DNA of 64,000 bases, from positions 160,001 to 224,000 of the forward strand of contig OY970172.1 of NCBI GenBank assembly GCA_963707655.1, read 5' to 3'. Every line of letters starts with the position of its first letter. The stretch's first letter is position 1. Below, piece after piece: positions 50,332 through 54,357 of this stretch. A program made the position numbers and the translations under genes. Below the pieces are notes generated by a model that saw only the letters and a list, made by a program, of their open reading frames with translations, did no database searches and was not told the DNA's origin. This stretch comes from an uncultured bacterium. GTDB taxonomy: Bacteria; Babelota; Babeliae; Babelales; Vermiphilaceae.

Positions 50332-50616
50332 ATGGCAATTATTTCTCGGGAAGAAGTTCTTAAACTTGCGCGTATGTCTAATCTTTCAATTCATGATAAT
50401 GAAGTTGAAGGGATTATGAAACAGATTGAAGATGTTCTTACGTATGCGGCGCGCGTGCAGGAAATTAAAGAAGATGTTACCCTTGCTGCAATGAAAAACA
50501 TTAATAGGGTTCGTGAAGATCTGGTTATTCCTACCGATCCTGCGCCACTTCTTGCACAGGCTCCTGAACAAGAAGCCAACTATTTTGTAGTTCCCGCTAT
50601 TCTAGAACATAAATAA
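50332..50616 (+). CDS. gatC: Asp/Glu-tRNA amidotransferase subunit C
   Basis: ISREEVLKLARMS.L, VRED, AP....YFVVPAI. Confidence 0.92.
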   Translation: MAIISREEVLKLARMSNLSIHDNEVEGIMKQIEDVLTYAARVQEIKEDVTLAAMKNINRVREDLVIPTDPAPLLAQAPEQEANYFVVPAILEHK

Positions 50617-50631
50617 AAGGTTTTTTTAACG

Positions 50632-52086
50632 ATGGCTACTCTTGCTTTTGCAACAATCAAAGAACTCAAAGATAAATTGGAAAAAAAAGAGATATCTTCT
50701 TCTGATCTTCTTGCCCATTCCATTGAACGATTTAAAAAATATGATGTACAATTAGGCTCCGCTTTGGAAGTTTTTGAGCATCAATCAATTCTTAATAAAT
50801 CGAGCAACAAAGGGAACCTTGCGGGTATTCCCGGTCTTGTTAAAGATAATATTGCCCAAGAGGGGCGCGCACTCTCATGCGCTTCAAAAATTTTGTCTAA
50901 TTTTACCTCAACATATGACGCTACAGCAATTGCCCGTCTGAAAAATGAGGGAGCGTTGCTCGTTGGTCGCGCCAACATGGATGAATTTGCCATGGGTAGC
51001 TCTACCGAGACCTCAGCATATTTCAAAACAAAAAATCCATGGGATGCGCAGAGAGTTCCCGGCGGTTCAAGTGGTGGCTCTATAGCAGCAGTTGCCGCTG
51101 GCTTGGTGCCATTCGCCTTGGGTTCCGATACCGGTGGTTCGGTAAGGCAGCCCGCAGCCTTTTGTGGTATCGTTGGGCTTAAGCCAACATATGGTTTGGT
51201 TTCTCGATATGGCTTGGTTGCTTATGGTTCATCTCTTGACCAAATTGGGGTTGCCACCCGTTCTGTGTACGACGCTGCATTAGTTTTATCTGCAATGGCG
51301 GGACAAGATATTAAAGATTCATCAACACTTGCCGCTGAAAAAAAAGATTACACTGACAAGCTCGATGGCAAAATGCCTTCAAAATTGGTCATTGGTGTAG
51401 TGGAAAACGCCGTGAATGCAACGGGAATGGACGAAGAAGTTAAAGCATTGGTTGAGAATGCAATTGTGCAATTGGAAAAATTAGGCGCAACTATCAAACG
51501 TATTACCATACCAAGCATGGATTATAGTGCGGCAGCTTATTTTATTATCAGTCGCGCTGAAGCCGCTTCAAATCTTGCTCGTTTTGATGGAGTGCGCTAT
51601 GGCATGCGTGATAAAAATGCTGCCACATTGGGCCAAATGTATAGCAACACACGTCATGACGGTTTTGGACCTGAAGTAAAAAGCAGAATTTTAATTGGCA
51701 ATTACGTGCTCTCTGCCGGACATGCCGGTGCTTTCTATGAAAAAGCGCGCAATGTACAACGTATGATCCGTCATGAATTTATGGAAGCATTTAAAGACAT
51801 TGATCTTTTAGTCATGCCAACACAACCGGCTCCCGCTTTTGAATTCGGGGCGTTTGATGTAGATAAATTGCAAATGGATTTGCAGGATTATTTTACCTGT
51901 CCCATTAACTTAGCTGGTATTCCTGCGCTTTCAGTTCCCTGTGGTTTCACCAAAAAAGAATCTTTGCCTATTGGTTTTCAATTGGTTGGGCCTCACTTGT
52001 CAGAGGAATTGTTATGCCAGGTAGCACACGCATATGAGCTTTCACAGCCGTGGGCAACAACTCATCCCAAAGCATTTGTAGAGTAA
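50632..52086 (+). CDS. gatA: Asp/Glu-tRNA amidotransferase subunit A
   Basis: KDN, NMDEFAMGSSTE, PGGSSGGS, GSDTGGSVRQPA, EAASNLARFDGVRYG. Confidence 0.98.
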   Translation: MATLAFATIKELKDKLEKKEISSSDLLAHSIERFKKYDVQLGSALEVFEHQSILNKSSNKGNLAGIPGLVKDNIAQEGRALSCASKILSNFTSTYDATAIARLKNEGALLVGRANMDEFAMGSSTETSAYFKTKNPWDAQRVPGGSSGGSIAAVAAGLVPFALGSDTGGSVRQPAAFCGIVGLKPTYGLVSRYGLVAYGSSLDQIGVATRSVYDAALVLSAMAGQDIKDSSTLAAEKKDYTDKLDGKMPSKLVIGVVENAVNATGMDEEVKALVENAIVQLEKLGATIKRITIPSMDYSAAAYFIISRAEAASNLARFDGVRYGMRDKNAATLGQMYSNTRHDGFGPEVKSRILIGNYVLSAGHAGAFYEKARNVQRMIRHEFMEAFKDIDLLVMPTQPAPAFEFGAFDVDKLQMDLQDYFTCPINLAGIPALSVPCGFTKKESLPIGFQLVGPHLSEELLCQVAHAYELSQPWATTHPKAFVE

Positions 52087-52100
52087 GCTATTTAAAAATT

Positions 52101-52133
52101 AAAGAGGCTCGGGATTCCCGGGCCTCTTTTTTT
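52101..52133. terminator. Bidirectional terminator
   Basis: AAAGAGGCTCGGG-ATT-CCCGGGCCTCTTTTTTT. Confidence 0.88.
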
Positions 52134-52158
52134 ATAGTAAACGTTGCTTATATGCTAT

Positions 52159-52488
52159 TTAATTTCCCTTGGGAAAAAAGTAAAAGCCATTGGAATTAGT
52201 TCTTTCGAAAAATTCGGCGGCTGTGAAAGATAACTCGCCGGTATATCCGATGAAGGGTATATGGTAATTCTCTCGGTTTACCGGTGTATGGTGTTTCTCG
52301 TTTATCAGCACTAAGATCTCAGCAAGGGTAGTTTTCTTGGTTATATCTATATCATACGTTGCGGTAGGATCAAACGTTCCGGTATCATTTTTTTGTGCTA
52401 CAAATACTTTAATTATTTTGTGTTGTTCTTCCGCTCCACGAGCCATAGAAAAGCTTGCCAATAAGCAGAGTGCAATCGCTTTAATCAT
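52159..52488 (-). CDS. Secreted small protein, ubiquitin-like pattern (copy 3)
   Basis: Signal + AEE; IKVFV..YDIDITKKTTLAEILVLINEKHHTPVN. Confidence 0.7.
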   Translation of the reverse strand: MIKAIALCLLASFSMARGAEEQHKIIKVFVAQKNDTGTFDPTATYDIDITKKTTLAEILVLINEKHHTPVNRENYHIPFIGYTGELSFTAAEFFERTNSNGFYFFPKGN

Positions 52489-52520
52489 ATCAATTCCCTC
52501 TTTAATAACGATTTTCTATG

Positions 52521-52868
52521 TTATTTAATTGGCTTGGGGAAGAACCCAATGATATCACCCTGAGCTGCGTTAAAAAAATCTTTGACCGTTGCGACCCTCG
52601 TTAGATTGCAGGGTGCTTTTATAATGCTTTCACCGGTATCTCTCACAGCACTTATGCAATATTCGGTTGAATTTAGAGTGTAATTGTGTGCGCTATTCAA
52701 TACCGTTACGAGCTCATCTATGGTACTCTCGCGGGCCATAGTTATCTCAAATAGTTGGTTAAAGCCATTGTTCTGTTGTACAAATACTTTAATTGGTTTT
52801 TGTGCTTCTTCAGCGGCATGAGCCATAAAAAAGCTCGCCAATAAGCAGAGTGTCAATTTTTTAATCAT
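52521..52868 (-). CDS. Secreted small protein, ubiquitin-like pattern (copy 2)
   Basis: Signal + AAEE; IKVFVQQNNG..FEITMARESTIDELVTVL. Confidence 0.7.
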   Translation of the reverse strand: MIKKLTLCLLASFFMAHAAEEAQKPIKVFVQQNNGFNQLFEITMARESTIDELVTVLNSAHNYTLNSTEYCISAVRDTGESIIKAPCNLTRVATVKDFFNAAQGDIIGFFPKPIK

Positions 52869-52878
52869 ATCAATTCTT

Positions 52879-53238
52879 TCATTTTAAGGACTTATGCCAG
52901 AACGCAATAACATTACTATTAGTTTTTCTCAAAACGTCTACCACTGTGTGGGAGGCGAGCGGCGCTGCCGATAGAGTAGGATTGCCTTGATTAAGTTTTG
53001 TACCGTCATTTAATAGCGTGGTTATGAAGTACTCATTGTTGTTTACGGGGCACTTATGGGTATTATTCAATAATGTTTCGAGCTCGATTATTGTAGTGTT
53101 GTTCGTTATATTGAGAGCAAGGGTTTTGACTGTCTTTGTTTTTGTGTACACCAATACTTGAATTTTTTGTGGGGATTCTTCAGCAGCATGAGCTACAAAA
53201 AAAATTACTAACAAGCACAGGGGCATTATTTTAATCAT
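52879..53238 (-). CDS. Secreted small protein, ubiquitin-like pattern (copy 1)
   Basis: Signal + AAEE; IQVLVYTKTKTVKTLALNITNNTTIIELETLLNNTHKCPVN. Confidence 0.7.
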   Translation of the reverse strand: MIKIMPLCLLVIFFVAHAAEESPQKIQVLVYTKTKTVKTLALNITNNTTIIELETLLNNTHKCPVNNNEYFITTLLNDGTKLNQGNPTLSAAPLASHTVVDVLRKTNSNVIAFWHKSLK

Positions 53239-53319
53239 ACCAATTCCTTATATCACGTTGTGTATCAATAGATAATTTAACTAAAGCTATTGTACGGTGA
53301 TTTGTTTAAATGGCAATGA

Positions 53320-53397
53320 TTATTGTGTCGAGTTGCTCATGCTTATGGGCTTTCACAGCCATGGTCTACCAAATCGCCATTTGCTTTCCATGAGTAA
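53320..53397 (+). repeat. Displaced, diverged copy of gatA 3' end (matches 52009-52086)
   Basis: Encodes LLCRVAHAYGLSQPWSTKSPFAFHE* versus GatA LLCQVAHAYELSQPWATTHPKAFVE*. Confidence 0.92.
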
Positions 53398-53496
53398 TAA
53401 AAAACAGCTTTTTTATTTTTACTTGAAAAGAAAAATACACCTTCAGTACACTGTAGTGTGTGGGGCAAGCTTAGGCTTTTGAGCCGGGGTGAGGGT

Positions 53497-54357
53497 ATGT
53501 GGTCGAAAAAAAAAGATCTGATTTACATAATATTTTTCTTTCTGTCATCTGTAAGCATAATAGAAGGCGAGATGCAAAATTCTTGCGTTAAAAAAGGTCT
53601 TGGCTACAAAGAAATTCGTTACCGGCGGGTGCAGGCAGGAAAAAATAAAGATCCTTATATTTTTGCCGACATTTTTAAAGACATTTTTTATTTAAACTAT
53701 AATCTTCTGAGCGTTGATACGTTTAAAGTATTTGTTGGCGTGTTTCCTTTTTATATCGCCGCGCGCATGATTGAGACTCCGTTGCAGAGTAATTTTTATT
53801 GTGGGCAGCATCACAAAAACCTTAAGCAGATGCCTTGGTGGTGTGATGGCGCCGCCCGTTTTGGCTTGGCGCTCCCTTTGGTTGGCTTGGGCAGTCTTGC
53901 TTTTTTTGCACATGATGAAGAGATTCGGCAGACGAGTTGGGCATTTATTTTGGGTATGCCATTTCTGATTTTTGGTAATAAAATAACTAAACGATTTACT
54001 TTTGATGGCTGTGAGCGGCCGTGGCATGAAAAATTCAGTTGCACTAAACGCGCTTGCGGCGGGTTTCCTTCCGGTCATATGGCTGAAGTAACGTATATGG
54101 CCGCCTTATATGGCTCTCGTTTTGGCTACAAATGGGGGATTCCATTGGGTGTTTACGGTGCTTTTGTCGGGGTAAATTTTTTGGTCAGCAATCGCCATTA
54201 TCTTTCACAATTGGTCGGCGGTGTTGGCTGGGGATTAATGTACACCTATGCGGCAAACAAATTGATTGATAGCAAGATGAATAAATATAATATGCGGCTC
54301 TCTATGACCAATGATTTTCGCGGGGCGCCTGCAATGCGTCTTGCTTGTTCTTTCTAA
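53497..54357 (+). CDS. PAP2 family phosphatase
   Basis: K......RP, FPSGH, NRHYLSQ..GG; hydrophobic helices. Confidence 0.82.
   Translation: MWSKKKDLIYIIFFFLSSVSIIEGEMQNSCVKKGLGYKEIRYRRVQAGKNKDPYIFADIFKDIFYLNYNLLSVDTFKVFVGVFPFYIAARMIETPLQSNFYCGQHHKNLKQMPWWCDGAARFGLALPLVGLGSLAFFAHDEEIRQTSWAFILGMPFLIFGNKITKRFTFDGCERPWHEKFSCTKRACGGFPSGHMAEVTYMAALYGSRFGYKWGIPLGVYGAFVGVNFLVSNRHYLSQLVGGVGWGLMYTYAANKLIDSKMNKYNMRLSMTNDFRGAPAMRLACSF

Follow-up and report, generated by a model that had tools for sequence, protein, structure and literature searches.

The window analysed here is a stretch of 64,000 nucleotides (nt) from an uncultured bacterium of the Vermiphilaceae (Babelota; assembly GCA_963707655.1, contig OY970172.1, positions 160,001 to 224,000), and coordinates in this text are positions within it, with those in other contigs named as such. 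In this genome (G000) gatA, an essential housekeeping gene for an amidotransferase, is followed, about 1.2 kb downstream and in the same orientation, by a fragment of 78 bases that repeats the end of gatA. On balance, and with modest confidence, we read this fragment, here called the relic, as the orphaned end of a second gatA allele, comprising its last 25 codons and left by an old recombination event. The live gene (484 amino acids (aa), 50632..52086, + strand; Pfam Amidase, E=3e-137) closes with what we call tail A, i.e. its last 25 codons and TAA (52009..52086, + strand, translation LLCQVAHAYELSQPWATTHPKAFVE*), and the relic occupies 53320..53397 on the same strand (25 codons and TAA, translation LLCRVAHAYGLSQPWSTKSPFAFHE*, no start codon). 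Between the two lies an islet of three genes on the opposite strand. The relic would thus be a clean footprint of recombination between a core translation gene of a reduced, host-dependent genome and a diverged allele of a related lineage, and the same event would have put an operon of rapidly evolving secreted proteins beside gatA. It reveals no new mechanism.

An earlier note on this DNA, made from the letters alone, had described two tails of equal length with 18 of 25 residues identical and with different synonymous codons at 12 of these 18, and our translations and script counts reproduce these figures exactly. It had also pointed out that the relic has no start codon and is directly preceded by an in-frame TGA; both are indeed the case, and TAG/TAA codons follow further upstream. 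The three genes that it placed between gatA and the relic are real tandem paralogues (38–41% identity). Compared as repeats, tail A and the relic are 63% identical. A search of the whole G000 genome with GatA returned gatA and the relic only (relic E=8.2e-5), a tail scan of gene ends gave the relic an E-value of 1.2e-7, and the two tails also came up in the repeat finder (D2, with 75% identity in the first 51 nt). When the own gatA tail of each genome was aligned to its downstream flank, the score was 95 in G000, compared with 24–43 in 25 relatives (1.5-kb flanks) and 30–40 in 12 relatives (flanks of ∼7 kb). As the G000 score exceeds those of the relatives and the genome search is significant, the match is far above chance.

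The edges of the similarity are sharp: it sets in at 53319/53320 and does not go past the stop codon. Upstream of the relic any likeness to gatA is at shuffle level (977 of 1000 shuffles reach the score), and beyond the two stop codons no similarity above shuffle level was found either, the flanks of tail A and of the relic being unrelated. The longest identical run between the tails measures 12 nt (GCTTTCACAGCC) and lies in the middle of the repeat; 10 nt of this run (TTTCACAGCC) are also carried by the gatA tail of the same-genus genome G001. The left half of the relic is best preserved (8/10 aa, with 7 synonymous changes). Judged by its sequence, the relic is a putative pseudogene, a 3'-terminal fragment of a GatA gene.

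The evidence for a second allele lies in the way the two tails differ. At codon positions 1, 2 and 3 we count 4, 6 and 18 nucleotide differences, respectively (28 of 75), and the hypergeometric probability that at least 18 of 28 differences fall on the 25 third positions is 1.7e-5. At sites that are invariant in three functional tails (those of G000, G001 and the metagenome contig L058), the relic differs at 6 of 7 third positions and at 8 of 42 first and second positions. In simulations that start from a duplication of the tail, purifying selection (omega 0.1 or 0.2) acted on one copy while the other evolved neutrally, and we asked for at least 18 identical residues together with at least 12 synonymous differences (nine divergences, 20,000 runs). 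With duplication and neutral drift, no more than 3 of 20,000 runs reached this target at any divergence (P≤1.5e-4); with both tails under coding selection, up to 18% of the runs did. Since drift fails in these simulations and dual selection fits, we conclude that a functional gatA of another lineage ended in this sequence for most of the time since the two tails parted. To this extent the suggestion of the earlier note, a true gatA end under coding constraint apart from tail A, is borne out. The source lineage would have been a relative, because the relic shares C3 and S12-Q13 with the tails of the genus-level clade. Part of its distance from other tails is decay; two of its replacements fall on family-conserved positions (E to G in AYE and H to S in HP). 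Counts of synonymous and replacement changes on a relic of 25 codons can therefore separate a xenologous end from a drifting duplicate.

The earlier note had gone on to propose that the current GatA C-terminus may be the imported one. For this we find no support: tail A groups with the tails of relatives, and the relic is the outlier. Tail A matches the tails of G001, P0002 and L058 at 20/25, 21/25 and 21/25 residues, respectively, and the relic matches these same three tails at 15/25. Relative to G001, tail A is no more distant than the rest of the gene: its 20/25 identical aa and 13/25 third-position differences agree with the gene-wide values (82.6% and 50.5%, respectively). Nor did the breakpoint expected by the note near position 52009 appear, as sliding windows of 25 codons compared with G001 and L058 gave nothing significant. 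Such a breakpoint is expected only under site-specific replacement, so that its lack leaves the direction unsettled; in one-sided homologous recombination the crossover can fall anywhere upstream. Both tails lie between native DNA and the islet. There is one argument for regarding the relic as native: gatA, terminator and islet in this order would be a natural configuration for a donor, much like the occupied gap of G001, and a donor carrying the islet, its promoter and then a gatA tail would not.

The closest GatA matches carry the source names Candidatus Dependentiae or Babeliales. The gene order MatE-gatC-gatA is kept in all 29 relatives' loci examined, and in 18 of these 29 a PAP2-family gene lies within 1.5 kb of gatA, so that adjacency of gatA and PAP2 is the common state. 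In G001, gatA is followed by a terminator, one unrelated gene on the minus strand and the PAP2 promoter; the relic is absent there (alignment scores at shuffle level). It was likewise not found in 28 relatives scanned (25 with flanks of 1.5 kb, 12 with ∼7 kb); an ORF (open reading frame) filter left 4 of 30 loci out of the 1.5-kb scan (L007, L011, L021 and L026), of which L007 and L011 belong to genomes within the ∼7-kb scan, while L021 and L026 (genomes G009 and G015) were unscanned. Immediately beyond the relic, the DNA shows homology to the region upstream of PAP2 in G001 (0 of 1000 shuffles reach the score) and in L058 as well. The relic thus stands directly upstream of a conserved PAP2 promoter, where the gatA end of relatives lies, and in this respect it fits the 'displaced end' that the earlier note had offered as an option.

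Several other features of these loci may be mentioned. In four relatives (L047, L049, L052 and L057, from G017, G039, G008 and G050, respectively) the gap between gatA and PAP2 is larger by 1.5–5.5 kb, and the enlarged gaps hold three tandem paralogues of ∼248 aa, six orphan ORFs, an ankyrin-repeat protein, or two orphans; other relatives carry gatA-Dus-MreC-S49 instead. Locus L006 (G018) shows an inverted match to its own gatA tail (…QAMHPAL) ∼267 nt downstream on the opposite strand. With a score of 43 this is the highest background score in the 1.5-kb scan, and it may be due to chance or be a small inverted copy. In G044 a gatA match (G044:C2:1099073-1100314) has 12 internal stops, and in G050 a SecY region (G050:C2:374279-375597) is broken by several stops; each may be a pseudogene or an assembly problem.

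The age of the event can be judged from L058, a 4.7-kb metagenome contig (4713 nt) that we reached via the islet homologue P0125. Read in the orientation of gatA, it contains gatA, a terminator, P0125, a pseudogene of islet gene 3, a remnant of the relic, the PAP2 promoter, PAP2, PRT and SBP3. Its gatA (the last 256 codons) has 93% aa identity to that of G000, with 41% of the third positions different, and the terminator hairpin behind it is homologous to the one in G000. P0125 is encoded on the strand opposite to gatA. The pseudogene of gene 3 is truncated at its 5' end (70% nt identity over 236 aligned bases), and the stretch AAATCGCCATCTGCTTTTGATGAG... corresponds to the last 27 nt of the relic, with 22/27 identical. 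The PAP2 promoter is identical at 29 of 30 positions, and PAP2 itself has 89% aa identity. As L058 has the tail type, the terminator, the islet family, the gene-3 pseudogene and the end of the relic, the insert and the relic predate the split between G000 and L058. As a marker, the event can thus be dated: it precedes the divergence of the L058 organism, and G001 lacks it. The relic is decaying: most of it, about two thirds, is gone in L058. The divergence along these 5 kb is uneven, PRT and SBP3 being 68% and 67% identical between G000 and L058 compared with 93% for GatA and 89% for PAP2.

From the arrangement of these parts we infer the following course of recombination. Two gatA alleles would have diverged while both were working genes. 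In the ancestor of G000 and L058, DNA from a related Dependentiae lineage would then have recombined at the gatA–PAP2 locus. One junction would have formed through homology, in gatA, beyond it or towards PAP2, and the opposite one by illegitimate joining at codon 460 of a copy of gatA. Such a process would be a C-terminal displacement by homology-facilitated illegitimate recombination, and its outcome would be an intact gatA with its own tail and terminator, a convergent three-gene operon with its promoter, the orphaned end and the PAP2 promoter. The GC content of the islet is the same as that of its flanks, as expected from a related donor. Displacement of this type has been proposed for rhs and type VI secretion system (T6SS) effector-immunity loci (PMC5361080; PMC3240628). 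As in these loci, the conserved 5' part of the gene would serve as an anchor, new 3' DNA and cargo would come in and the old end would be orphaned downstream, with no integrase needed. Whereas rhs and T6SS loci diversify toxin tips and form orphan arrays, gatA encodes a housekeeping amidotransferase and both of its ends have the same function; furthermore, the gatA relic is single and the cargo operon lies on the opposite strand. Among the 8 best matches of a literature search on gene transfer in Dependentiae, none was relevant.

A number of observations weigh against an orphaned second allele. Homologous recombination between alleles with about 50–70% of the third positions different should be rare. 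A GatA with a relic-like tail was not seen among the best 120 full-length matches or among 119 shorter matches ranked on the C-terminal region (the latter at ≤76% identity, except for the organism's own fragment; 7 of the full-length sequences were read and all others judged by identity ranking). A partition of informative sites against P0002, P0003 and P0004 placed the best cut at codon 385 with P=0.03, uncorrected over 84 cut points. Compared with L058, the tail is the most divergent window of 25 codons (15/25 third positions vs 6–12), a difference that fails multiple testing. The relative-rate ratio (differences G001/(G024, G003)) is 0.59 for GatA, which is the second highest of 8 genes and not an outlier; the other values are 0.27 for SecY, 0.38–0.40 for PAP2, 0.39 for a 482-aa protein, 0.40 for MatE, 0.50 for a 579-aa protein, 0.52 for GatC and 0.63 for an 844-aa protein. 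In addition, the relic of G000 is kept somewhat better than the neutral rate predicts (8/42 changed vs an expected fraction of 0.33, P=0.035, with the rate calibrated on gatA at about 0.5 substitutions per site per branch), and the promoters on its two sides are consensus predictions.

Among the alternatives, a remnant of an integrase-borne element of the icd/e14 type (a comparison that includes phage 21 at icd) is unlikely but has the most to recommend it. The element would have used the 3' end of gatA as its attachment (att) site and carried a substitute gatA end, so that the gene stayed whole on integration; the native end would have been pushed to the far side, and the integrase and the rest would later have been deleted, with three cargo genes left. 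In E. coli K-12, the icd end borne by the prophage replaces the native one, which is left as the pseudogene icdC, and the differences between the ends are mainly synonymous (PMC13626634). The gatA locus has the same layout as icd-e14-icdC: a housekeeping gene retains a working 3' end next to the insert, and beyond the insert lies a homologous C-terminal fragment. Here, too, the ends differ by mostly synonymous changes and a few conservative replacements, and recombination between them would restore a chimeric intact gene, as is stated for icd (PMC13626634). The 12-nt run common to both tails could be the att core, no other 25-codon window differs more between G000 and L058 than the tail does, and the gatA–PAP2 slot holds different lineage-specific genes in several relatives. 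However, e14 is described there as a 15-kb prophage that has its own site-specific recombinase and was seen to excise, whereas the gatA insert measures 1.2 kb, has no recombinase and was not seen to excise, and it is the current tail of gatA, not the relic, that groups with the tails of relatives. No integrase, excisionase or transposase is found in the islet or among 50 ORFs of at least 150 aa downstream of gatA in 12 relatives, and none of these 50 matches a recombinase. The 28 other relatives scanned have no relic, though the slot is often occupied. Moreover, with a central crossover the left half of the relic would never have been translated, yet this is its best preserved part, and the 10 nt shared with G001 indicate that the supposed core may be no more than conserved codons. 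Duplicated 3' ends of tRNA and tmRNA genes mark the borders of genomic islands as well; these repeats are usually att sites that an integrase has produced in near-identical form. There, as here, inserted DNA lies between direct repeats of the 3' end of a gene; unlike those repeats, the two copies of the gatA end have diverged to 63% identity in the manner of coding sequences.

Doubtful, too, and a little less probable, is that the relic is kept for a present function, be it as regulatory DNA or spacing for divergent promoters or as a reserve gatA end, from which a complete gatA would be rebuilt when the 78-nt repeats recombine and the 1.3-kb insert drops out. A promoter-like site for the islet operon (TTGCCA-16-TACAAT, 10/12; 53289..53316, − strand) ends 4 nt short of the relic. 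On the other side, an A/T-rich stretch separates the stop codon of the relic from a promoter-like site for PAP2 (TTGAAA-18-TACACT; 53423..53452, + strand) that is conserved in G001 and L058. Both sites come from a consensus scan and are predictions, the site count in the region being not above that of shuffles. With these sites flanking it so closely, the relic takes up the greater part of the interval between these two predicted, divergently oriented promoters, and it now appears to be an untranscribed spacer between them. This position is what a regulatory or spacing role would lead one to expect, and the relic has indeed kept its open frame, its length and its stop codon despite an age above the G000/L058 split (P=0.035, as given above). 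Its last 27 nt are also more alike between G000 and L058 (22/27) than third positions are (59–63% identical; P=0.016 with an expected difference of 0.40). However, L058 has lost about two thirds of the relic and still kept the PAP2 promoter. Conservation between G000 and L058 falls with distance from this promoter (97%, 88% and 81%), which indicates a promoter-proximal constraint, not one on the relic as a unit. Regulatory constraint cannot pile differences on third codon positions, two replacements have hit family-conserved positions (the E to G and H to S changes above), and the RNA fold of the relic region is not unusual (z=+0.6). The residual excess preservation of the relic we leave unexplained.

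A bolder version, to which we attach only slight probability, would make the 3' end of gatA a recurrent landing site, within this Dependentiae clade, for small integrase-less cassettes of fast-evolving secreted ubiquitin-like effectors, each with its own gatA end and terminator; the displaced end would be kept readable, and recombination between the 78-nt ends would shed the cassette and rebuild gatA. If this were true, the relic would be a reserve exon-like end and not mere debris. The gap between gatA and PAP2 in any case looks like a place of repeated uptake of lineage-specific, effector-like genes.

Very little credence can be given to a local duplication of the gatA end, be it a long target duplication or a side effect of the tandem duplication of neighbouring genes, with neutral decay thereafter. 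In its favour, the same genome does make relics of this kind. A genome-wide scan of gene heads and tails yielded one other case, a copy of the tail of a transketolase-like gene (627 aa, G000:C1:993400-995283), the last ∼37 codons of which are repeated about 1 kb downstream (G000:C1:992274-992383; L045 2775-2884, minus strand). This relic is frameshifted (59–71% aa identity) and arose when a 1.13-kb unit was duplicated in tandem (73% nt identity); the unit holds a convergent lipoprotein-like gene of 330–344 aa whose 3' end overlaps the end of the transketolase-like gene. Like the gatA relic, it is a tail fragment ∼1 kb downstream of its gene amid tandem lineage-specific genes. Unlike it, the gatA relic has no unit-level homology around it and shows coding-type divergence. 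The geometry of a tandem duplication does not fit the gatA relic, because no homology extends beyond the relic across the repeated unit: the islet units repeat at 370–380 nt without a copy of the tail, and the relic does not sit at a unit boundary but beyond the 5' end and the promoter of the last islet gene. The relic also has 30 nt differences from G001 compared with 20 for tail A, and the simulated duplicates matched it in 3 of 20,000 runs at most. Two further candidates were rejected, namely the relic as a frozen ancestor of tail A, in view of its greater distance from G001 (30 vs 20 differences), and conversion of the relic by tail A, with which 18/25 different third positions are at odds.

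An assembly artefact joining two strains, which the metagenome type of the assembly and the presence of related strains (diverged contigs) in similar samples might suggest, is very unlikely and carries next to no weight, given that the genome is a single 1.09-Mb contig, that both junctions are present, with 0 differences, in short contigs of public soil and peat runs (51965-52219 in X3 and 53223-53400 in X1; the runs belong to two studies, and one of them may be the source sample), that the longest run common to the tails (12 nt) is too short to mislead an assembler, and that the parts follow one another in this order in L058, too, which is an independent contig of a different organism. Among the short contigs mapped to the locus no joint removing the islet was seen, although none of them spans the whole stretch, several bins are bare and such contigs cannot show absence. 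An exact 24-mer of the relic had 0 matches in metagenome contigs.

The islet itself would be a complete transcription unit, predicted from a terminator, three tandem paralogues and the promoter-like site described above. Its genes all lie on the minus strand and align as paralogues: gene 1 for a secreted orphan protein of 109 aa (52159..52488), gene 2 for 115 aa (52521..52868) and gene 3 for 119 aa (52879..53238). The three genes also make up the repeat family D1, with a spacing of 380/370 nt. The intergenic gaps measure only 32 and 10 nt, which suggests a single operon. A GC-rich hairpin followed by a T run (52101..52129; 13-pair stem with 8 GC pairs) terminates gatA and probably the convergent islet operon, too. 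In Rfam, no family reached the threshold in the region, and sub-threshold matches to small RNA models sit on this hairpin only.

The islet proteins have an N-terminal hydrophobic leader that ends in A-H-A or similar (read by eye). None of the three ORFs has a Pfam match, and the family was found in no other genome among 80 of the family and 261 of the order. A word search of 5.8 billion proteins returned the organism's own three islet proteins only, and a sensitive profile search of 1.8 billion representatives added just two distant homologues, P0125 and P0126. P0125 is 37% identical to the islet copies of G000 while GatA is 93% identical, so that the family seems to evolve very fast or to turn over. 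An AlphaFold model of the gene 1 product, built from a 3-sequence alignment, has a pLDDT (predicted local distance difference test) of 75. Its best Foldseek hit has E=4.6e-3, and VIA-align gives Z values up to 7.8, where values below 8 are in the common range of this tool; most of the VIA-align matches listed are ubiquitin-like (UBL), SUMO, ISG15 or MoaD domains. The mature domain of the islet proteins may thus weakly resemble ubiquitin-like beta-grasp domains. Dependentiae live inside amoebae and other protists, and with such an intracellular life a secreted, host-directed role of the islet proteins is plausible.

The neighbouring genes recognized in the Pfam scan are MatE, GatC, PAP2, PRT and SBP. 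Upstream of gatA, MatE precedes gatC (50332-50616; Pfam GatC, E=7e-12). Downstream of the relic, the PAP2-family gene (Pfam PAP2) extends over 53497..54357 on the + strand. Its ORF opens at GTG 53458, and the ATG at 53497 is favoured as the likely start by alignment with the N-termini of L058 and G001 and by a preceding purine-rich stretch.

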